Positions 3,846 to 24,044 of a stretch of 64,000 nucleotides of DNA are shown here, piece after piece (the first letter of the stretch is position 1; every line of letters begins with the position of its first letter). The stretch is taken from the NCBI RefSeq assembly GCF_003019035.1, contig NZ_CP027447.1. One strand, 5' to 3'. The stretch comes from Escherichia coli. GTDB taxonomy: Bacteria > Pseudomonadota > Gammaproteobacteria > Enterobacterales > Enterobacteriaceae. The notes beneath the pieces were generated by a model. That model was not told where the DNA came from and ran no database searches. It saw only the letters and a list, made by a program, of their open reading frames with translations. Made by a program: the position numbers and the translations under genes.

Positions 3846-5489
3846 TTATGCCGTCCGGGCAACGGCATCACGCGAAGCAGCATCGCGCTCTTCGCCTGTC
3901 AGCTCGCTAAGTTGCCCGTTGCGCATTTCCAGCAGGCGGTCAGCGTGGATAAAGTAATGATCATCATGACTGATGGCGAAAATCGTTTTACCCATCTCCT
4001 GCATCAGCGGTAGCAGCACCTGATAAAACTCACGGCGGAAGTGTGGGTCCTGATCCGCCGCCCATTCATCCAGCAGGATAATATCGCGTTCTTCTGCCAG
4101 CGCCAGCAACAGCGCGACGCGTTTTTTCTGCCCTTTTGATAACTTCAGGTTAACAATACGCCCGTTACTTAACTCAAGCTTATGAGCCATTTTCAGCTGC
4201 GCCAGCCACTTCTCAACCAGTTGCGGGTTAGCGGGTTGCCCCTCCGGCCCCAGCAGTTGATCAAACAGCCAGACATCGGTAAACACTGCCGAAAACAGTT
4301 TGCGATAATCTTCCGGTTGTTCGCCGCTGACAGGTTTGCCATCCAGCAAGATTTCGCCGCTTTGTGGCTGATACAAGCCCGTCAGCAACATCGCCAGCGT
4401 CGATTTTCCGCTACCGTTGCCACCAATCAGAAACAGCAGTTCGCCACGTTTGATGGTGAGGTTAATCGGCCCAACGGAAAACGCGTTATCCTGATAAGCA
4501 AACGTCACGTTACGCAGCTCCAGCGTTTGCCAGTTGGGAAACGCCTGCGGGCGCGGAAACTCTGCTTTGAAAGGCGCGAGCGCGAATTTGTTCAGCTTGT
4601 TAAACGCCACCTGCGCCGTCAGCAGCGTCGGCAATGCGCCAACTGCCGAAAGCAGCGGCGTACGCAGGAATAACAGCGTCAACGAATAGGTCGCGGCAAC
4701 GTTGGTATCAGCCCAACCGAGACTGTTCGCCATCCAGAACACCAGGCCGATAGCGCCCAGCATCATGATGTTTGACCAGTTCACGGCACTAAGATGGAAG
4801 GTGTCTGCGCGGATAATATGATGGCGATACTCTTGCGCATCAGGAATGTAGAGGTTGTTAAACACATACTCGGCGCGTTCCCGGTTCAGAGTCAGCTCTT
4901 TGCGCCCTTCGAGTACGGTTTGAAAATCCGTGTACAGCTTATCTTCGGTTTCACGCAGGGTCGCCATATGTTTGTACACCCGCGCCACCAGCACAAAACC
5001 GCCCCAGATGGTGACTGCCATCCAGATAGCCGTTACCAGCAACATTTTGCCCGACAGCATCCACAAATACGCCGCGGAACCGATAGTGAGAATGATCCCC
5101 TGCACCAGTTCCGGCAGACGCACAAAAGCAATGGTGATATTGCGCACATCGCTGGTTAACCCCGCCAGCAACGAAGCGCTACCAAGTTGTTCAATGCGCT
5201 CGACGTGGGTATCCAGAATCCGCTTGATAAATTCACTACGCAGTCGGTAAACGAAGTGATGCCCCAAAGTGGTGAGCGCCAGTTGCGATCCGAGAGTGAC
5301 TGCCATCAACAGCAACAATAATCCCAGAAACTCCGGCAACACCAGCAGACTGGTATCCGCCGTTTCGATAAGGCGCTGATTGATAAAAGCAATTAAGCCA
5401 ATGCCTAATGCCGCACTGGCGAGGCTTAGCGCCATCACACTGATAAATGGCCAGCGATACTGCCGCCAGACAAGTACAAGAAGTTCCAT
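3846..5489 (-). CDS. yojI: ABC transporter (fused permease/ATPase), microcin J25 efflux type
   Basis: 547-aa ORF; N-terminal TM domain, C-terminal Walker [10 protein letters not shown] and Walker [12 protein letters not shown]. Confidence 0.9.
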
Positions 5490-5564: not shown

Positions 5565-6215
5565 TTATTCTTTTTTACCTGCCTGACGGAATGTCAGGTT
5601 GTAGCGGCAGTCGGTGGTGAGTGGATGAAACCCCGCTTTCAACGGTTGAATGCCATGATAAAACAGCCGCGATTCACCGCCCCATACCACCACATCGCTA
5701 TGTTCCAACAACAATCTTTTTAGCGGATCATTTCGTTTCAGGCCGCCAAATTGAAAAATCGCGGGTAAGCCCAGAGAAACAGAAACAATTGGCGCGCGCA
5801 GATCCGGTTCGTCTTTATCCTGATGCAGCGACAGTTTCGCGCCAGGAACGTAGCGGTTGATCAAACAGGCATCTGGCTGGAAATCTGGATAGCCCGCCGC
5901 CGTAGCCGCACGTTGGCATAAATCATGAAAACTCTGCGGCATGGCGGGCCACGGTTTATTTGTTTGCGGATCAATGGGCGAATAGAGATAACCTTGCCGA
6001 TGGGTCGTCCAGCCCAGATGCCCACAGTTGGTCATCGCCACCGACATGGTATATCCGCCTGGAGTGACCATCTGGCGAAACGGCGACTGGCTGGCAACGT
6101 CATTAATATCGCGTATCAGTTGCTCCGCAGCGTTAAAAGCAAAACGGTGCAAAATCACCGCTCCAGCCGCCAGTGGTTCTTGCCACGGTTCAGCATCAGC
6201 AAACAGATCCAACAT
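5565..6215 (-). CDS. alkB: AlkB, Fe(II)/2-oxoglutarate-dependent DNA/RNA demethylase
   Basis: 216-aa ORF MLDLFADAEPWQEPLAAGAVIL...; downstream of and overlapping ada. Confidence 0.95.
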   Translation of the reverse strand: MLDLFADAEPWQEPLAAGAVILHRFAFNAAEQLIRDINDVASQSPFRQMVTPGGYTMSVAMTNCGHLGWTTHRQGYLYSPIDPQTNKPWPAMPQSFHDLCQRAATAAGYPDFQPDACLINRYVPGAKLSLHQDKDEPDLRAPIVSVSLGLPAIFQFGGLKRNDPLKRLLLEHSDVVVWGGESRLFYHGIQPLKAGFHPLTTDCRYNLTFRQAGKKE

Positions 6216-9800: not shown

Positions 9801-9948
9801 GAACTTTTTAAGATTATTGCGGAATGGCGAAATAAGCACCTAACATCAAGCAATAATAATTCAAGGTTAAAATCAATAACTTATTCTTAAGTATTTGACA
9901 GCACTGAATGTCAAAACAAAACCTTCACTCGCAACTAGAATATCTCCC

Positions 9949-10041
9949 GCTATCATCATTAACTTTATTTATTACCGTCATTCATTTCTGAATGTCTGTT
10001 TACCCCTATTTCAACCGGATGCCTCGCATCCGGTTTTTTTT
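9949..10041 (+). ncRNA. micF: MicF antisense sRNA (represses ompF)
   Basis: GCTATCATCATTAACTTTATTTATTACCGTCATTCATTTCTGAATGTCTGTTTACCCCTATTTCAACCGGATGCCTCGCATCCGGTTTTTTTT; divergent from ompC, ends in hairpin plus T-run. Confidence 0.9.
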
Positions 10042-13694: not shown

Positions 13695-13777
13695 ACCTGT
13701 AGGCCAGATAAGACGCGTCAGTGTCTTATCTGGCATTTGCACTGAATGCCAGATGCGGCGTAAACGCCTTATCCGTC
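13695..13777. repeat. REP palindromic units between convergent rcsB and rcsC
   Basis: cctgtaggccagataagacgcg...gccagatgcggcgtaaacgccttatcc imperfect palindromes. Confidence 0.65.
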
Positions 13778-16627
13778 CTACGATTCCCGCGATTTCCTGA
13801 CCCTCTCGGCATATACCGTCAGCGTCTGTTTTATCACATCCAGCGTTACCGGCTTCGACAGGCAGCTGTCCATACCGGACTCCAGACACCGCTGCTTCTC
13901 TTCAGCCAACGCATTAGCAGTTACTCCGATTACCGGCAACGTCAGTCCCAACTGACGAATGCGTTGCGTCAAGCGGTAACCATCCATATTTGGCATGTTG
14001 ACGTCGCTAAGCACGATATCAATATGATTCTTGCTAAGTACATTAAGCGCATCGACGCCATCATTCGCGGTTTTACATTGATAGCCCAACGATCCCAACT
14101 GATCTGCCAGCAGACGCCGGTTAATCGGATGATCATCCACGACCAGAATCATCATATCGTCATTATCGCTGACCGCTTTGTCCGTCGACGGCAGAGCGTT
14201 AGCAGGATCGTCGCTCTCCATCTCGATCAAATAAATACGCGCCAACAATGCCGGTAGCTCATGCGGGGCAGCCACACTGTGTACCCACTCCCCTGGCGCT
14301 TTCTCCAGCGGAATACCAATATGGCGACGACAGAAGGTCACTACCGCTCTACCCTGCCATTTTTTACTCACTACCTCGTCAGTAATTAACACATCTTCGG
14401 GAGTCGGTTCCTGCCCTTCGTATGTTGTAACGACGATGCCGCTGCGCTGCAAACTGGTTTCCAGGAACTGACAGAGCGACGCATTGCGGACCGCCAGCCA
14501 GCAGCGTTTACCACTCAACCCTTCCACGCCTTTTTTCTGCGGGTACTGAGCGCCGTACAACGGAATACGCACGGTAAACTGGCTGCCCATTCCCGGTTCT
14601 GAATCTACCGAGATGTCGCCGTCCATCATGCTGATCAGTTTTTCACAAATCGCCAGACCCAGACCGGTCCCCTGGAAGTTTCGCTGTACGCCCGTTCCGA
14701 CCTGGAAGAAGGGATCAAACAAGCGCACGACTTCTTTCGCCGGAATCCCCACGCCGGTATCGCGAACACGGATAGAGAGATAATCGCCATCAGCGCGAAC
14801 ATGCAAAACTATACAGCCGGTATCGGTGAATTTTATGGCGTTACTCAACAGGTTGGAGATGACCTGCTGTAAACGCATCGGGTCGCCATTTAAGGCCACT
14901 GGCACATCCGGTTCAATAAAGCAGTACAAGCCTAACTGCTTGCGTACCACCAGCGGTAAATAGTTGGCGGTGATGTGGTTCATCACTTCACGCGGTGAAA
15001 ACTCACGCGGTTCGATCTTCAACTGTTCTGATTCAATTTTCGAGAAATCGAGAATATCGCTGATAATTTTCAACAACAGGCTGGAAGAGTTGTTCATTGC
15101 CGTCACCAGACGATCGACGCCTTTCGGTAACTCTTTGGTTTGCAACAGATCCAGGTTACCGATAATGCCATACAGCGGCGTTCGCAGCTCATGACTGACG
15201 GTGGCAAGGAACATCGATTTTGACTGGCTCGCCTGTTCCGCTGCTTGTGCCATCTCCTGCAACGACTCTTCCATCTTCACGCGCGAAGATACATCCACCA
15301 GCACACAAATGGCCACGTTTTCATTACGATAGCGCGAATGGACGAAGCTGATTTGCAGATTGGTATTGTTGCTGGTCAGGACATCAACAAAATTGACCTG
15401 CTGCCCACAGATAATTTGTGTCAGCCGTTGGCGATCCTCATGCGTAAGCATATTGAGATAGGTATGCGCCAGTTCGTTACTTAAAATATTGACGCCATCA
15501 GCGGTACGCAAAATGCAGATACCCACTGGCGCGGAGGCGACAATCTTGCGATTAAACTGCTCATGTTCTTCCAGTCGCAGGGCGTCGCTTTCCGCCGGAA
15601 TGAAAATACGTCGCTCGTACATCCGCGCGAGAGTAAACAATGCAGCTCCGGCAAGCACATTCAGCAAAATTGCGTTAAGGATCAACATGCGAATGCGTTC
15701 CAGCACCTTATCAACCGGCACCGAATACACGATGCTTAGCGATGAGGGTGGCAGATTTTTCTTCAGCACCAGCTCCCGGAACCCTTCCGTATAGCCAAAC
15801 CAGGAGCGTTCCTGCATCCAGCGAGGATCGCCCTTAATTTTGCTTTCTGGTCCGGTAAGCGAAATCAGGGTATGACCATTTTCATCAAGAATGGTAACCC
15901 CCATCGGCAACGTACCAGGTAAGAAAAAGTTCTCCATCCGGATGGTCTGCTCGACACCCAAAAGCGCCTGCAACCGGTTCGCCAGATAAACTGGCGTCAA
16001 CGCGTAAAAATACCCGACGCCAGGGCGCGGACCTTCGCTGATCCAGTAGAGGTTACTGCCACTATCATCTTGTGGTGCATTTCGATATTTATTAATGCGT
16101 TCATGCAACGCTTTTAGCGCGGTATCGCGTTCCACTGGCATATCACGCAGACCGAAATTGGCCATGCAGAGGTTATCGCTGCCGATTAAAAATACCCGGT
16201 TGAGATCGTAAGCCGCAGAAAAATTATCGCGCCAGTAGCGCATAAACCACGCCAATGACTCCAGAGAACCTCGCCAGGTGTTACTCATTGCGGAACAATC
16301 AGAGTCAGCAAACAGCGGTTCAAACGCAGGCACATCCGTCTGCGTTTCTCGTCCACGCGGGGAAAGCACACCGTTTTCTGCCGATAAGCGATTTTCGGCG
16401 ATGTACTTCAGCTCTTTCATCACATCAGAGGTGCGTTGAATAAAGCGCTGAGCCTGATCGGAACTCAGATTAAATTCCTGACGAATTTCCGATTCTCGCT
16501 GATGTAACGCATTAACGATGTAAAAAACGGATGAAAAAGCAATCAACAGCCAGAGCACTAACGCCAATGCTCTGAACATGTAGCGCGAGGCTTTCAGGGT
16601 TGTACGAAAAGAAGCAAGGTATTTCAA
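13778..16627 (-). CDS. rcsC: RcsC hybrid sensor histidine kinase
   Basis: 949-aa ORF MKYLASFRTTLKASRYMFRAL...; HisKA motif SHELRTP and C-terminal receiver domain. Confidence 0.93.
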   Translation of the reverse strand: MKYLASFRTTLKASRYMFRALALVLWLLIAFSSVFYIVNALHQRESEIRQEFNLSSDQAQRFIQRTSDVMKELKYIAENRLSAENGVLSPRGRETQTDVPAFEPLFADSDCSAMSNTWRGSLESLAWFMRYWRDNFSAAYDLNRVFLIGSDNLCMANFGLRDMPVERDTALKALHERINKYRNAPQDDSGSNLYWISEGPRPGVGYFYALTPVYLANRLQALLGVEQTIRMENFFLPGTLPMGVTILDENGHTLISLTGPESKIKGDPRWMQERSWFGYTEGFRELVLKKNLPPSSLSIVYSVPVDKVLERIRMLILNAILLNVLAGAALFTLARMYERRIFIPAESDALRLEEHEQFNRKIVASAPVGICILRTADGVNILSNELAHTYLNMLTHEDRQRLTQIICGQQVNFVDVLTSNNTNLQISFVHSRYRNENVAICVLVDVSSRVKMEESLQEMAQAAEQASQSKSMFLATVSHELRTPLYGIIGNLDLLQTKELPKGVDRLVTAMNNSSSLLLKIISDILDFSKIESEQLKIEPREFSPREVMNHITANYLPLVVRKQLGLYCFIEPDVPVALNGDPMRLQQVISNLLSNAIKFTDTGCIVLHVRADGDYLSIRVRDTGVGIPAKEVVRLFDPFFQVGTGVQRNFQGTGLGLAICEKLISMMDGDISVDSEPGMGSQFTVRIPLYGAQYPQKKGVEGLSGKRCWLAVRNASLCQFLETSLQRSGIVVTTYEGQEPTPEDVLITDEVVSKKWQGRAVVTFCRRHIGIPLEKAPGEWVHSVAAPHELPALLARIYLIEMESDDPANALPSTDKAVSDNDDMMILVVDDHPINRRLLADQLGSLGYQCKTANDGVDALNVLSKNHIDIVLSDVNMPNMDGYRLTQRIRQLGLTLPVIGVTANALAEEKQRCLESGMDSCLSKPVTLDVIKQTLTVYAERVRKSRES

Positions 16628-16793
16628 AGGGGCGAAGCTCCGCCTCAGGTGACCGATGGAGTGTGGTTAAGGTAGCGGTAAAAGCGTGTTACCGCAATGT
16701 TCTCTCTTCTCTGGAATATGATACACCGCCGAGAAATCATCACCTTAACCTCTGATAATCGTCATATACCGGACAAGACTAGTGGATTTCAGC

Positions 16794-18620
16794 ATGCATT
16801 ATATGAAGTGGATTTATCCACGCCGCTTACGCAATCAAATGATCCTGATGGCAATCCTGATGGTCATTGTCCCAACGCTTACTATTGGTTATATCGTAGA
16901 AACGGAAGGACGTTCAGCAGTCTTATCTGAAAAAGAGAAAAAACTTTCTGCCGTGGTCAACCTGCTTAATCAGGCGCTAGGCAATCGCTACGATCTCTAC
17001 ATCGACTTACCGCGTGAGGAGCGTATCCGCGCATTAAATGCAGAACTTGCCCCCATTACCGAAAATATCACTCACGCCTTCCCTGGCATCGGCGCTGGTT
17101 ATTATAACAAAACGCTGGATGCGATAATCACCTACGCGCCTTCAGCGCTATATCAGAATAATGTCGGCGTTACCATTGCCGCAGATCACCCTGGTCGCGA
17201 AGTCATGCGTACAAATACCCCTTTGGTTTATTCAGGCAGGCAGGTGCGCGGCGATATTTTGAATTCAATGATCCCCATTGAGCGTAATGGTGAAATCCTC
17301 GGCTATATCTGGGCCAATGAATTAACCGAAGATATTCGCCGCCAGGCCTGGAAAATGGATGTGAGGATTATCATTGTGCTCACCGCCGGTTTGCTGATAA
17401 GCCTGCTGTTGATTGTCCTTTTCTCCCGTCGCCTGAGCGCCAATATAGATATCATCACCGATGGCCTCTCGACTCTGGCACAAAATATTCCCACTCGATT
17501 ACCACAATTGCCCGGTGAAATGGGGCAAATCAGTCAGAGTGTTAACAACCTCGCCCAGGCACTGCGTGAAACGCGGACACTTAACGATCTGATTATTGAA
17601 AACGCTGCCGATGGCGTCATTGCCATTGACCGCCAGGGTGATGTAACCACCATGAACCCGGCAGCAGAAGTCATCACTGGCTATCAACGTCATGAACTGG
17701 TAGGGCAGCCTTACTCCATGTTGTTCGACAATACTCAGTTCTACAGTCCAGTACTGGATACGCTGGAACATGGCACCGAACATGTAGCGCTGGAGATCAG
17801 TTTTCCAGGCCGTGACCGCACCATTGAACTCAGTGTCACTACCAGTCGTATTCATAACACGCACGGTGAAATGATAGGTGCTTTGGTGATTTTCTCTGAT
17901 TTAACTGCCCGCAAAGAAACCCAGCGCCGCATGGCGCAAGCAGAACGCCTCGCCACACTGGGTGAGCTGATGGCTGGCGTGGCGCATGAAGTACGTAATC
18001 CGCTAACGGCTATTCGTGGTTATGTACAGATCTTGCGCCAACAAACCAGCGACCCAATACATCAGGAATATCTGTCCGTAGTACTCAAAGAAATCGATTC
18101 AATTAACAAAGTTATTCAGCAATTGCTCGAATTTTCACGTCCACGCCACAGTCAATGGCAACAAGTCAGCCTCAATGCATTGGTTGAAGAAACTCTGGTA
18201 CTGGTACAAACCGCCGGCGTACAAGCGCGGGTCGACTTCATAAGCGAACTGGATAATGAATTAAGCCCGATTAACGCCGATCGTGAACTGCTCAAACAGG
18301 TACTACTGAATATCCTGATCAATGCCGTCCAGGCTATCAGTGCACGAGGGAAAATTCGCATTCGAACCTGGCAATACAGCGACTCACAACAGGCCATTTC
18401 GATAGAGGACAACGGCTGTGGCATTGATCTCTCGCTGCAAAAAAAGATCTTCGATCCCTTTTTCACCACCAAAGCCTCAGGAACCGGGCTTGGTCTGGCG
18501 TTAAGTCAACGCATCATTAATGCCCATCAGGGTGATATTCGCGTCGCCAGTTTGCCGGGCTACGGCGCAACCTTCACGCTTATTTTACCGATCAACCCGC
18601 AGGGAAATCAGACTGTATGA
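16794..18620 (+). CDS. atoS: AtoS sensor histidine kinase
   Basis: ORF track begins at a GTG (16782); the ATG at 16794 gives MHYMKWIYPRRLRNQ...; H-box AHEVRNP. Confidence 0.9.
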   Translation: MHYMKWIYPRRLRNQMILMAILMVIVPTLTIGYIVETEGRSAVLSEKEKKLSAVVNLLNQALGNRYDLYIDLPREERIRALNAELAPITENITHAFPGIGAGYYNKTLDAIITYAPSALYQNNVGVTIAADHPGREVMRTNTPLVYSGRQVRGDILNSMIPIERNGEILGYIWANELTEDIRRQAWKMDVRIIIVLTAGLLISLLLIVLFSRRLSANIDIITDGLSTLAQNIPTRLPQLPGEMGQISQSVNNLAQALRETRTLNDLIIENAADGVIAIDRQGDVTTMNPAAEVITGYQRHELVGQPYSMLFDNTQFYSPVLDTLEHGTEHVALEISFPGRDRTIELSVTTSRIHNTHGEMIGALVIFSDLTARKETQRRMAQAERLATLGELMAGVAHEVRNPLTAIRGYVQILRQQTSDPIHQEYLSVVLKEIDSINKVIQQLLEFSRPRHSQWQQVSLNALVEETLVLVQTAGVQARVDFISELDNELSPINADRELLKQVLLNILINAVQAISARGKIRIRTWQYSDSQQAISIEDNGCGIDLSLQKKIFDPFFTTKASGTGLGLALSQRIINAHQGDIRVASLPGYGATFTLILPINPQGNQTV

Positions 18621-20002
18621 CTGCTATTAATCGCATCCTTATTGTGGATGATGAAGATAATGTTCGCCGTATGCTGAGCACCGCTTTTGCACTACAAGGT
18701 TTCGAAACACATTGTGCGAACAACGGACGCACAGCATTACACCTGTTTGCTGATATTCACCCTGACGTGGTGTTGATGGATATCCGCATGCCAGAGATGG
18801 ACGGCATCAAGGCGCTAAAGGAGATGCGCAGTAATGAGACCCGGACACCCGTTATTCTGATGACGGCCTATGCTGAAGTGGAAACCGCCGTCGAAGCGCT
18901 ACGCTGCGGGGCCTTCGACTATGTTATTAAACCGTTTGATCTCGATGAGTTGAATTTAATCGTTCAGCGCGCTTTACAACTCCAGTCAATGAAAAAAGAG
19001 ATCCGTCATCTGCACCAGGCACTGAGCACCAGCTGGCAATGGGGGCACATTCTCACCAACAGCCCGGCGATGATGGATATCTGCAAAGACACCGCCAAAA
19101 TTGCCCTTTCTCAGGCCAGCGTCTTGATTAGCGGTGAAAGCGGCACCGGGAAAGAGTTGATTGCCAGAGCGATTCACTACAATTCGCGGCGGGCAAAGGG
19201 GCCGTTCATTAAAGTCAACTGCGCGGCGCTGCCGGAATCGTTGCTCGAAAGTGAACTGTTTGGTCATGAAAAAGGTGCATTTACTGGTGCACAAACCTTG
19301 CGTCAGGGATTATTTGAACGTGCCAACGAAGGTACTCTGCTCCTCGACGAAATTGGTGAAATGCCGCTGGTACTGCAAGCCAAATTACTACGCATTCTGC
19401 AGGAACGGGAATTTGAACGGATTGGCGGCCATCAGACCATAAAAGTTGATATCCGCCTCATTGCTGCCACCAACCGCGACTTGCAGGCAATGGTGAAAGA
19501 AGGCACCTTCCGTGAAGATCTCTTTTATCGCCTTAACGTTATTCATTTAATACTGCCGCCTCTGCGCGATCGCCGGGAAGATATTTCCCTGTTAGCTAAT
19601 CACTTTTTGCAAAAATTCAGTAGTGAGAATCAGCGCGATATTATCGACATCGATCCGATGGCAATGTCACTGCTTACCGCCTGGTCATGGCCGGGAAATA
19701 TTCGAGAGCTTTCCAACGTTATTGAACGCGCCGTCGTGATGAATTCAGGCCCGATCATTTTTTCTGAGGATCTTCCGCCGCAGATTCGTCAGCCAGTCTG
19801 TAATGCTGGTGAAGCAAAAACAGCCCCTGTCGGTGAGCGTAATTTAAAAGAGGAAATTAAACGCGTCGAAAAACGCATCATTATGGAAGTGCTGGAACAA
19901 CAAGAAGGAAACCGAACCCGCACTGCTTTAATGCTGGGCATCAGTCGCCGTGCATTGATGTATAAACTCCAGGAATACGGTATCGATCCGGCGGATGTAT
20001 AA
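18617..20002 (+). CDS. atoC: AtoC sigma-54-dependent response regulator
   Basis: 461-aa ORF; receiver domain, AAA+ GESGTGKE and GAFTGA motifs, C-terminal HTH; ATGA overlap with atoS. Confidence 0.93.
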   Translation: MTAINRILIVDDEDNVRRMLSTAFALQGFETHCANNGRTALHLFADIHPDVVLMDIRMPEMDGIKALKEMRSNETRTPVILMTAYAEVETAVEALRCGAFDYVIKPFDLDELNLIVQRALQLQSMKKEIRHLHQALSTSWQWGHILTNSPAMMDICKDTAKIALSQASVLISGESGTGKELIARAIHYNSRRAKGPFIKVNCAALPESLLESELFGHEKGAFTGAQTLRQGLFERANEGTLLLDEIGEMPLVLQAKLLRILQEREFERIGGHQTIKVDIRLIAATNRDLQAMVKEGTFREDLFYRLNVIHLILPPLRDRREDISLLANHFLQKFSSENQRDIIDIDPMAMSLLTAWSWPGNIRELSNVIERAVVMNSGPIIFSEDLPPQIRQPVCNAGEAKTAPVGERNLKEEIKRVEKRIIMEVLEQQEGNRTRTALMLGISRRALMYKLQEYGIDPADV

Positions 20003-20136
20003 CGCCAAAACTTGCTATGCAGAAATTTGCACAGTGCGCAATTTTCTGCATAGCCGCTCATTCTCCTTATAAACCCCCATCTAATTTATCCTTTTCTATT
20101 CAATTAGTTAAATAACAACCCCCAATAATCTCATTC

Positions 20137-20151
20137 TGGCACTCCCCTTGC
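20137..20151 (+). promoter_or_regulatory. Sigma-54 (-24/-12) promoter of atoDAEB
   Basis: TGGCACtccccTTGC matches TGGCAC-N5-TTGC, about 45 bp upstream of atoD and downstream of the activator gene atoC. Confidence 0.8.
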
Positions 20152-20197
20152 TATTCCCTGACTGTACCCACAACGGTGTATGCAAGAGGGATAAAAA

Positions 20198-20860
20198 ATG
20201 AAAACAAAATTGATGACATTACAAGACGCCACCGGCTTCTTTCGTGACGGCATGACCATCATGGTGGGCGGATTTATGGGGATTGGCACTCCATCCCGCC
20301 TGGTTGAAGCATTACTGGAATCTGGTGTTCGCGACCTGACATTGATAGCCAATGATACCGCGTTTGTTGATACCGGCATCGGTCCGCTCATCGTCAATGG
20401 TCGAGTCCGCAAAGTGATTGCTTCACATATCGGTACCAACCCGGAAACAGGTCGGCGCATGATTTCTGGTGAGATGGACGTCGTTCTGGTGCCGCAAGGT
20501 ACGCTAATCGAGCAAATTCGCTGTGGTGGAGCTGGACTTGGTGGTTTTCTCACCCCAACAGGTGTCGGTACCGTCGTAGAGGAAGGCAAACAGACACTGA
20601 CACTCGACGGTAAAACCTGGCTGCTCGAACGCCCGCTGCGCGCCGACCTGGCGCTAATTCGCGCTCATCGTTGCGACACACTTGGCAACCTGACCTATCA
20701 ACTTAGCGCCCGCAACTTTAACCCCCTGATAGCCCTTGCGGCTGATATCACGCTGGTAGAGCCAGATGAACTGGTCGAAACCGGCGAGCTACAACCTGAC
20801 CATATTGTCACCCCTGGTGCCGTTATCGACCACATCATCGTTTCACAGGAGAGCAAATAA
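20198..20860 (+). CDS. atoD: Acetate CoA-transferase alpha subunit
   Basis: 220-aa [29 protein letters not shown]... Confidence 0.93.
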
Positions 20861-21510
20861 TGGATGCGAAACAACGTATTGCGCGCCGTGTGGCGCAAGA
20901 GCTTCGTGATGGTGACATCGTTAACTTAGGGATCGGTTTACCCACAATGGTCGCCAATTATTTACCGGAGGATATTCATATCACTCTGCAATCGGAAAAC
21001 GGCTTCCTCGGTTTAGGCCCGGTCACGACAGCGCATCCAGATCTGGTGAACGCTGGCGGACAACCGTGCGGCATTTTACCCGGCGCAGCCATGTTTGATA
21101 GCGCCATGTCATTTGCGCTAATCCGTGGCGGTCATATTGATGCCTGCGTGCTCGGCGGTTTGCAAGTGGACGAAGAAGCAAACCTCGCGAACTGGGTAGT
21201 GCCTGGGAAAATGGTGCCCGGTATGGGTGGCGCGATGGATCTGGTAACCGGGTCGCGCAAAGTGATCATCGCCATGGAACATTGCGCCAAAGATGGTTCA
21301 GCAAAAATTTTGCGCCGCTGCACCATGCCACTCACTGCGCAACATGCGGTGCATATGCTGGTTACTGAACTGGCTGTCTTTCGTTTTATTGACGGCAAAA
21401 TGTGGCTCACCGAAATTGCTGACGGGTGTGATTTAGCCACCGTGCGTGCCAAAACAGAAGCTCGGTTTGAAGTAGCTGCCGATCTGAATACGCAACGGGG
21501 TGATTTATGA
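20860..21510 (+). CDS. atoA: Acetate CoA-transferase beta subunit
   Basis: 216-aa [32 protein letters not shown]...; overlaps atoD stop. Confidence 0.93.
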   Translation: MDAKQRIARRVAQELRDGDIVNLGIGLPTMVANYLPEDIHITLQSENGFLGLGPVTTAHPDLVNAGGQPCGILPGAAMFDSAMSFALIRGGHIDACVLGGLQVDEEANLANWVVPGKMVPGMGGAMDLVTGSRKVIIAMEHCAKDGSAKILRRCTMPLTAQHAVHMLVTELAVFRFIDGKMWLTEIADGCDLATVRAKTEARFEVAADLNTQRGDL

Positions 21511-22829
21511 TTGGTCGCATATCGCGTTTTATGACGCGTTTTGTCAGCCGGTGGCTTCCCGATCCACTGATCTTTGCCATGTTGCTGACATTGCTAACAT
21601 TCGTGATCGCGCTTTGGTTAACACCACAAACGCCGATCAGCATGGTGAAAATGTGGGGTGACGGTTTCTGGAACTTGCTGGCGTTTGGTATGCAGATGGC
21701 GCTTATCATCGTTACCGGTCATGCCCTTGCCAGCTCCGCTCCGGTGAAAAGTTTGCTGCGTACTGCCGCCTCCGCCGCAAAGACGCCCGTACAGGGCGTC
21801 ATGCTGGTTACTTTCTTCGGTTCAGTCGCTTGTGTCATCAACTGGGGATTTGGTTTGGTTGTCGGCGCAATGTTTGCCCGTGAAGTCGCCCGCCGAGTAC
21901 CCGGTTCTGATTATCCGTTGCTCATTGCCTGCGCCTACATTGGTTTTCTCACCTGGGGTGGCGGTTTCTCTGGCTCAATGCCTCTGTTGGCTGCAACACC
22001 GGGCAACCCGGTTGAGCATATCGCCGGGCTGATCCCGGTGGGCGATACTCTGTTCAGTGGTTTTAACATTTTCATCACTGTGGCGTTGATTGTGGTGATG
22101 CCATTTATCACCCGCATGATGATGCCAAAACCGTCTGACGTGGTGAGTATCGATCCGAAACTACTCATGGAAGAGGCTGATTTCCAAAAGCAGCTACCGA
22201 AAGATGCCCCACCATCCGAGCGACTGGAAGAAAGCCGCATTCTGACGTTGATCATCGGCGCACTCGGTATCGCTTACCTTGCGATGTACTTCAGCGAACA
22301 TGGCTTCAACATCACCATCAATACCGTCAACCTGATGTTTATGATTGCGGGTCTGCTGCTACATAAAACGCCAATGGCTTATATGCGTGCTATCAGCGCG
22401 GCAGCACGCAGTACTGCCGGTATTCTGGTGCAATTCCCCTTCTACGCGGGGATCCAACTGATGATGGAGCATTCCGGTCTGGGCGGACTCATTACCGAAT
22501 TCTTCATCAATGTTGCGAACAAAGACACCTTCCCGGTAATGACCTTTTTTAGTTCTGCACTGATTAACTTCGCCGTTCCGTCTGGCGGCGGTCACTGGGT
22601 TATTCAGGGACCTTTCGTGATACCCGCAGCCCAGGCGCTGGGCGCTGATCTCGGTAAATCGGTAATGGCGATCGCCTACGGCGAGCAATGGATGAACATG
22701 GCACAACCATTCTGGGCGCTGCCAGCACTGGCAATCGCCGGACTCGGTGTCCGCGACATCATGGGCTATTGCATCACTGCCCTGCTCTTCTCCGGCGTCA
22801 TTTTCGTCATTGGTTTAACGCTGTTCTGA
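21507..22829 (+). CDS. atoE: Short-chain fatty acid transporter
   Basis: 440-aa polytopic membrane ORF; overlaps atoA stop. Confidence 0.9.
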   Translation: MIGRISRFMTRFVSRWLPDPLIFAMLLTLLTFVIALWLTPQTPISMVKMWGDGFWNLLAFGMQMALIIVTGHALASSAPVKSLLRTAASAAKTPVQGVMLVTFFGSVACVINWGFGLVVGAMFAREVARRVPGSDYPLLIACAYIGFLTWGGGFSGSMPLLAATPGNPVEHIAGLIPVGDTLFSGFNIFITVALIVVMPFITRMMMPKPSDVVSIDPKLLMEEADFQKQLPKDAPPSERLEESRILTLIIGALGIAYLAMYFSEHGFNITINTVNLMFMIAGLLLHKTPMAYMRAISAAARSTAGILVQFPFYAGIQLMMEHSGLGGLITEFFINVANKDTFPVMTFFSSALINFAVPSGGGHWVIQGPFVIPAAQALGADLGKSVMAIAYGEQWMNMAQPFWALPALAIAGLGVRDIMGYCITALLFSGVIFVIGLTLF

Positions 22830-22859: not shown

Positions 22860-24044
22860 ATGAAAAATTGTGTCATCGTCAGTGCGGTACGTACTGCTAT
22901 CGGTAGTTTTAACGGTTCACTCGCTTCCACCAGCGCCATCGACCTGGGGGCGACAGTAATTAAAGCCGCCATTGAACGTGCAAAAATCGATTCACTACAC
23001 ATTGATGAAGTGATTATGGGTAACGTGTTGCAAGCCGGGCTGGGGCAAAATCCGGCGCGTCAGGCACTGTTAAAAAGCGGGCTGGCAGAAACGGTGTGCG
23101 GATTCACGGTCAATAAAGTGTGTGGTTCGGGTCTTAAAAGTGTGGCGCTTGCCGCCCAGGCAATTCAGGCAGGTCAGGCGCAAAGCATTGTGGCGGGGGG
23201 TATGGAAAATATGAGTTTAGCGCCCTACTTACTCGATGCAAAAGCACGCTCTGGTTATCGTCTTGGAGACGGACAGGTTTATGACGTAATCCTGCGCGAT
23301 GGTCTGATGTGCGCCACTCATGGTTATCATATGGGGATTACCGCCGAGAACGTGGCCAAAGAGTACGGAATTACCCGAGAAATGCAGGATGAACTGGCGC
23401 TACATTCACAGCGTAAAGCGGCAGCCGCAATTGAGTCCGGTGCTTTTACAGCCGAAATCGTCCCGGTAAATATTGTCACCCGGAAGAAAACCTTCGTCTT
23501 CAGTCAAGACGAATTCCCGAAAGCGAATTCAACGGCTGAAGCGTTAGGTGCATTGCGCCCGGCCTTCGATAAAGCAGGAACAGTCACCGCCGGGAACGCG
23601 TCTGGTATTAACGACGGTGCTGCCGCTCTGGTGATTATGGAAGAATCTGCGGCGCTGGCAGCAGGCCTTACCCCCCTGGCTCGCATTAAAAGTTATGCCA
23701 GCGGTGGCGTGCCCCCCGCATTGATGGGTATGGGGCCAGTACCTGCCACGCAAAAAGCGTTACAACTGGCGGGGCTGCAACTGGCGGATATTGATCTCAT
23801 TGAGGCTAATGAAGCATTTGCCGCACAGTTCCTTGCCGTTGGGAAAACCCTGGGCTTTGATTCTGAGAAAGTGAATGTCAACGGCGGGGCCATCGCGCTC
23901 GGGCATCCTATCGGTGCCAGTGGTGCTCGTATTCTGGTCACACTATTACATGCCATGCAGGCACGCGATAAAACGCTGGGGCTGGCAACACTGTGCATTG
24001 GTGGTGGCCAGGGAATTGCGATGGTGATTGAACGGTTGAATTAA
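22860..24044 (+). CDS. atoB: Acetyl-CoA acetyltransferase (thiolase II)
   Basis: 394-aa [24 protein letters not shown]...; thiolase active-site motifs. Confidence 0.95.

Follow-up and report, generated by a model that had tools for sequence, protein, structure and literature searches.

The DNA at positions 20136–20152 of the analysed stretch is, with a probability of roughly 0.96, the sigma-54 (RpoN)-dependent promoter of the Escherichia coli atoDAEB operon. It is already known as the characterized sigma-54 promoter of that operon, and is an ordinary one. The stretch, hereafter the window, comprises 64,000 nucleotides of an E. coli chromosome. The first-pass annotation had placed a canonical sigma-54 promoter upstream of atoD in the 15-mer TGGCACTCCCCTTGC, and this location proved exact: the 15-mer occupies 20137–20151 on the plus strand, inside the 195-bp atoC–atoD intergenic region (20003–20197), with the −24 GG and the −12 GC in the GG-N10-GC spacing. 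Laid out as TGGCAC TCCCC TTGC T (20137–20152), the element also satisfies the extended TTGCW consensus, because base 20152 is T. It lies on the coding strand, and the last base of its GC is 47 nt 5′ of the atoD ATG (20198). The RefSeq annotation holds no regulatory feature at the atoC–atoD promoter. The features discussed below are collected in Table 1.

Table 1 Features of the ato locus in the window and −24/−12 elements upstream of atoD in other genomes
Feature	Coordinates	Strand	Sequence, evidence or remarks
atoS, sensor kinase	16782..18620	+	NCBIfam NF008468 equivalog, 998 bits (cut-off 646)
atoC, NtrC-family sigma-54 enhancer-binding response regulator	18617..20002	+	NF008469 equivalog, 1000 bits (cut-off 714)
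AtoC enhancer (UAS), left half-site	20014..20033	+	GCTATGCAGAAATTTGCACA; −184 to −165 from atoD ATG; inverted repeat
AtoC enhancer (UAS), right half-site	20035..20054	−	GCTATGCAGAAAATTGCGCA; −163 to −144 from atoD ATG; inverted repeat
IHF-like site	20098..20110	+	ATTCAATTAGTTA; consensus WATCAANNNNTTR with a single mismatch; halfway from enhancer to promoter
Sigma-54 −24/−12 element	20136..20152	+	CTGGCACTCCCCTTGCT; 17-mer; GG 20138–20139, GC 20150–20151
Expected transcription start zone	20160..20164	+	Predicted
Shine-Dalgarno sequence	20186..20190	+	GAGGG; 7 nt 5′ of atoD ATG
atoD, acetate/acetoacetate CoA-transferase alpha, first operon gene	20198..20860	+	NF007394, 445 bits (cut-off 315)
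atoA, CoA-transferase beta	20860..21510	+	TIGR02428, 307 bits (cut-off 243.55); RefSeq annotation of identical strains
atoE, short-chain fatty acid transporter	21507..22829	+	TIGR00366, 749 bits; K-12 annotation agrees
atoB, acetyl-CoA acetyltransferase (thiolase II), last operon gene	22860..24044	+	TIGR01930, 494 bits (cut-off 240.55); K-12 annotation
atoD −24/−12 element, Escherichia sp. E1V33 and E. coli E69			Same sequence as in the window
atoD −24/−12 element, Symbiopectobacterium and contig labelled Serratia			CTGGCACCCGCCTTGCT
atoD −24/−12 element, Morganella psychrotolerans			TTGGCATGCCACTTGCT
atoD −24/−12 element, Photorhabdus bodei (locus L005)	about 4254–4270 of L005		TTGGCATACCTATTGCT; 18.4 bits, strongest of all

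At the scale of the window the motif alone is not significant, because 0.36 exact cores and 4.4 matrix hits are expected by chance. The exact core TGGCAC-N5-TTGC has a single match on the two strands of the window, and at least one such core occurred in 30 of 100 shuffled windows; when one mismatch was allowed, 7 cores were observed against 7.1 expected. A sigma-54 matrix scan, proposed as a check in the first-pass annotation, was carried out with a leave-one-out matrix, built on the remaining 134 ChIP-seq sites that Bonocora et al. 2015 list for sigma-54 (PMC4591121). The scan detected the atoD site at 13.0 bits, but only as rank 3 in the window and at a score that is expected to be reached or exceeded 4.4 times per random 64 kb. 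This score corresponds to the 27th percentile of the known sigma-54 ChIP sites. We accordingly dropped the motif score as sole evidence for a promoter, since the exact core and the matrix both fail at window scale. The two 17-mers that outscore the atoD promoter, both intragenic, are TTGGCGTGGTTTATGCG at 16239–16255 on the minus strand, inside rcsC, and TTGGCATAAATCATGAA at 5913–5929 on the plus strand; neither is among the 135 high-stringency K-12 ChIP-seq sites (PMC4591121).

The result is different when the search is restricted to context. The plus-strand core arose in only 8 of 20,000 dinucleotide shuffles of the 195-bp atoC–atoD intergenic region (~4e-4), and the core is significant there, unlike at window scale. 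This position-aware probability argues against the view that the 17-mer is a chance motif with no promoter role, and that expression of atoDAEB relies on a different promoter or on transcripts running through from atoSC. That view draws on the 0.36 exact cores expected per window and on a matrix score that chance beats about four times per 64 kb. A scan of 19900–20300 bears on it in both directions. No intrinsic terminator was detected on the plus strand after atoC, so that some read-through from atoSC is possible; the same scan yielded no sigma-70-like promoter from which the operon might be expressed instead.

Binding of sigma-54 to this element has been reported for K-12. Bonocora et al. 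reported a ChIP-seq peak, OS21, upstream of K-12 atoD, whose motif CTGGCACTCCCCTTGCT equals window positions 20136–20152 letter for letter (PMC4591121). In genomic SELEX with reconstituted RpoN holoenzyme, Shimada et al. obtained a peak in the same atoC>atoD spacer (PMC8743547). Published binding to an identical sequence speaks against a chance motif, and the assignment of the promoter to atoD in the first-pass annotation is borne out by both data sets. OS21 is also flagged ‘C’, experimentally confirmed in EcoCyc (PMC4591121 Table 1). Its occupancy is modest (FAT 5) and its published PSSM score is low (9.39; PMC4591121), which places the atoD site among the weaker intergenic sigma-54 ChIP sites. 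The label ‘canonical’ thus fits the core of the element but neither its −24/−12 spacer, which is C-rich (TCCCC) and atypical, nor its low rank among the intergenic ChIP sites.

Function as well as binding has been described. According to Pilalis et al., who cite Matta et al. 2007, AtoC binding activates sigma-54-dependent atoDAEB expression (PMC3118216), and literature cited in the same paper reports that acetoacetate induction is lost upon point mutation of the GG/GC or deletion of rpoN (PMC3118216). The response of Pato reporters to acetoacetate requires both atoS and atoC (PMC7618054).

The genes around the element supply the rest of a sigma-54 circuit. The first-pass annotation had stated that atoC lies directly upstream and encodes a sigma-54 activator with a GAFTGA motif; the equivalog match in Table 1 agrees, and the AtoC translation carries the GAFTGA loop as EKGAFTGAQ. 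The gene overlaps atoS by 4 nt. As listed, the atoS reading frame starts at a GTG at 16782; the K-12 annotation is 4 codons shorter (608 aa). Downstream, atoA overlaps atoD by 1 nt and atoE overlaps atoA by 4 nt. Elsewhere in the window, two RNAs scored above the Rfam gathering threshold: the MicF antisense RNA at 9948–10041 on the plus strand (116.8 bits), and naRNA4, a nucleoid-associated RNA, at 13702–13778 on the minus strand (64.8 bits), just 3′ of rcsC.

The search for inverted-repeat AtoC enhancer sites suggested in the first-pass annotation was run and uncovered a palindrome at 20014–20054, composed of two 20-bp arms around a single central G (20034), with 18 of 20 arm positions complementary. 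A palindrome of equal quality appeared in none of 2000 shuffles of the atoC–atoD intergenic region. Both arms match the AtoC sites in Table 5 of Pilalis et al. letter for letter, positions included: GCTATGCAGAAATTTGCACA on the plus strand (−184 to −165) and GCTATGCAGAAAATTGCGCA on the minus strand (−163 to −144), sites that were ChIP-verified in vivo (PMC3118216). The center of the palindrome is 110 bp 5′ of the center of the sigma-54 motif, within the enhancer range of about 80–150 bp. The IHF-like site between the two is probably a DNA-bending site, with IHF as the candidate protein; its position is retained in other genera, and the Serratia-labelled locus L009 has the full consensus, AATCAACTCGTTG, at the aligned position. 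The window shows no enrichment of the IHF pattern (66 observed, 56 expected), which is too common to serve as evidence alone. Since the window contains the kinase and activator genes, the enhancer, a probable bending site, the promoter and the operon, the earlier statement that the whole circuit is readable from the window stands.

These neighbors bear on another reading, in which sigma-54 holoenzyme binds the element but is mainly inert there or acts as a roadblock, while AtoC induction proceeds through another sigma factor. Bonocora et al. stressed that binding sites for sigma-54 are not necessarily promoters (PMC4591121), and the modest occupancy (FAT 5) of OS21 would be compatible with such a site. 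The element, however, is intergenic, reads in the sense direction some 35 nt ahead of atoD, and carries the EcoCyc confirmation flag. It is accompanied by the gene for a cognate GAFTGA activator and by a verified activator palindrome at enhancer distance, and there is no alternative sigma-70-like promoter in the scanned region. NtrC-family AAA+ activators are not known to be able to activate the sigma-70 holoenzyme. We consider an inert site very improbable.

To follow the element beyond E. coli, one genome per species was searched with a degenerate pattern of 10 protein letters taken from the coding region of atoD, which gave a small sample of 12 loci. Because the search pattern was atoD coding sequence, these hits are independent of the promoter. 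A strong −24/−12 element, its first base 57–67 nt 5′ of the ATG, was found in every Enterobacterales locus with enough upstream sequence. In the Affinibrenneria locus (L012), no −24/−12 site was found in the 109 nt upstream of atoD that were examined. Three alphaproteobacterial homologues without an activator gene served as negative controls, and none had a −24/−12 element near the atoD ATG. The genes upstream of atoD in loci L007, L008 and L009 are AtoC equivalogs (842–930 bits). In an alignment, all five genera share TGGCA, a single C of the spacer and TTGCTA, and differ in the remainder of the spacer. Invariance of the element amid variable neighboring spacers, and its recurrence at a matching distance from atoD in four more genera, both argue against a chance motif, which in view of all these data we regard as exceedingly improbable.

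The enhancer is likewise conserved in position. The core TTTGCRCA-N-TGYGCAAA is common to Escherichia, Symbiopectobacterium and Morganella. The outer 10 bp of the half-sites shift symmetrically by lineage, reading GCTATGCAGAA in Escherichia and Morganella and TGAGAAGGAA in Symbiopectobacterium (L007, about 2050–2086). The comparison suggests, at low probability, that AtoC may read mainly the inner core, and that the enhancer and the DNA-binding domain of AtoC may have co-evolved or the outer arms be otherwise used. Apart from this, the strain-specific substitutions in the spacer between the IHF-like site and the −24 element could tune inducibility.

Two loci of this sample merit separate description. 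In Photorhabdus bodei (L005), an enhancer-like sequence, GTGCACACCTGTGCAAGATTTTGCAC, lies upstream of atoD at about 4130–4160. No GAFTGA-encoding gene was found in the 11 kb of this locus; in Photorhabdus bodei the gene for the activator must therefore lie elsewhere. In the second locus, on a contig that bears the label Serratia marcescens (strain 1001295B; L009 4242–4469), there is an atoC–atoD promoter region almost identical to that of Candidatus Symbiopectobacterium (L007 2021–2248, and L011), a likeness that could reflect mislabelling or recent transfer.

Within E. coli the element is equally constant. Positions 1–25000 of the window are 100% identical to strain SCU-301, and the window is also identical to strains such as SCU-172. 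Of 5426 complete E. coli genomes, only 3923 contain the atoC–atoD intergenic region; the ato locus is therefore absent or disrupted in about 28% of them. All 3921 E. coli genomes that cover the 41-mer at 20126–20166 carry it with at most 2 mismatches, and the intergenic region as a whole is only 80–95% identical in 1778 of the carrier genomes. Among four Escherichia lineages (the window, K-12, E69 and Escherichia sp. E1V33), variable positions number 0 of 17 in the sigma-54 17-mer and 3 of 41 in the palindrome; the two long spacers vary at 27 of 43 and 11 of 25 positions. One natural deletion runs into the element. In E. coli CUVM53, a pig isolate, the match to the window (L014 3001–3141, corresponding to about 20005–20145) stops inside the −24/−12 element; atoD is annotated there as a pseudogene with its N-terminus missing, and the deletion takes the −12 half together with the atoD start.

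From 19900 to 20300 the window is 97.3% identical to genomes of the K-12 lineage (O16:H48). The aligned stretch 5′ of atoD contains 13 differences, 12 of them intergenic and 1 in the atoC stop codon. The promoter could be real but functionally altered in this strain relative to K-12 by these 13 substitutions, which cluster in the spacers at 20074–20121 and at 20156; example candidates are the C-run at 20119–20124, between the IHF-like site and the −24 element, and the C instead of G at 20156. Yet all 13 lie outside the palindrome, the 17-mer and the IHF-like site, and every recognized element is identical to that of K-12. Moreover, the 41-mer allele of the window recurs letter for letter in 1846 genomes and is thus a common natural variant. 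Altered function in this strain is therefore unlikely.

Bonocora et al. place the start at the motif center plus 19, with a ‘distance’ of 35 for atoD (PMC4591121 Table 1). Applied to the 17-mer, this rule predicts a start at 20163 and a 35-nt leader before the ATG at 20198. Matta et al. 2007 (J Bacteriol 189:6324) reportedly found an AtoC footprint from −146 to −107 and a requirement for IHF; these coordinates would put +1 at about 20160, 3 nt nearer the GC than canonical −12 numbering. A full-text literature search for AtoC footprint coordinates returned no match. Within the Shine-Dalgarno region, AGGGA is invariant in the five-genus alignment. The segment from the −12 element to the ATG (20153–20197) is well kept between Escherichia and Symbiopectobacterium, reading GTACCCAC..CGG.GTAT.CAA.GGGA. 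We also considered an RNA element in this conserved leader and rejected it: the single-sequence fold is weaker than those of shuffled sequences (z = +1.15), and the alignment fold contains no pairs.

A mechanism may be proposed from these elements. Sigma-54 RNA polymerase would sit on the GG (−24) and GC (−12) in a closed complex unable to open the DNA alone; binding of this kind was shown on the identical K-12 sequence by ChIP-seq (PMC4591121) and SELEX (PMC8743547). Acetoacetate would activate the membrane kinase AtoS, which would phosphorylate AtoC, a signaling route that is established and cited in PMC3118216 and PMC7618054. Phosphorylated AtoC would then occupy the 41-bp palindrome at 20014–20054, ~110 bp 5′ of the promoter. 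As judged from sequence and positional conservation, IHF may bend the DNA around 20098–20110 (near 20104) and so loop AtoC to the polymerase. Through its GAFTGA loop, the AAA+ domain of AtoC would couple ATP hydrolysis to the remodelling of sigma-54 and to promoter opening. Remodelling of the sigma-54 closed complex by AAA+ domains bearing GAFTGA is a general property of this activator family. Transcription would start near 20160–20164 and yield an atoD-atoA-atoE-atoB mRNA with a predicted unstructured leader of ~35 nt.

The closest known system, K-12 atoDp, represents this very locus. It agrees fully with the window in the 17-mer, in the pair of 20-bp AtoC half-sites, in the IHF-like and Shine-Dalgarno sequences and in their spacing from the ATG; the two differ by the 13 single-base changes 5′ of atoD, all outside recognized elements. 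The glnAp2/NtrC system shares the GG-N10-GC core, an NtrC-family GAFTGA regulator and an enhancer roughly 110–140 bp upstream, and it is of a family in which activation involves looping of the DNA and hydrolysis of ATP; with the NtrC model, AtoC reaches 475 bits. The systems differ in the signal, which is acetoacetate via AtoS for ato and nitrogen status for glnAp2, and in the enhancer, a single 41-bp palindrome in ato and several NtrC sites in glnAp2. The ato promoter also has an IHF-like site between enhancer and promoter and a C-rich spacer (TCCCC). The prpBCDE operon with PrpR is likewise a sigma-54 catabolic operon for a short-chain fatty acid (propionate) with an adjacent gene for an enhancer-binding protein. 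Only 2 of 17 positions distinguish its K-12 prpB site OS01, GTGGCACACCCCTTGCT, from the sigma-54 17-mer of atoD, and both have the atypical C-rich spacer (PMC4591121 Table 1). The two operons diverge in activator class (PrpR is without a receiver domain), in enhancer sequence and in locus.

Beyond annotation the finding is of little importance. For genome scans it carries a caution: a perfect −24/−12 core is insignificant alone in 64 kb, and it is context and conservation that pick out the real promoter. As a by-product, the comparison across genera gave a small footprint of the core of the AtoC enhancer. The analysis confirms that the AtoS-AtoC/sigma-54/atoDAEB circuit is readable in the window, a circuit that governs the use of acetoacetate and short-chain fatty acids and is employed as an acetoacetate biosensor.
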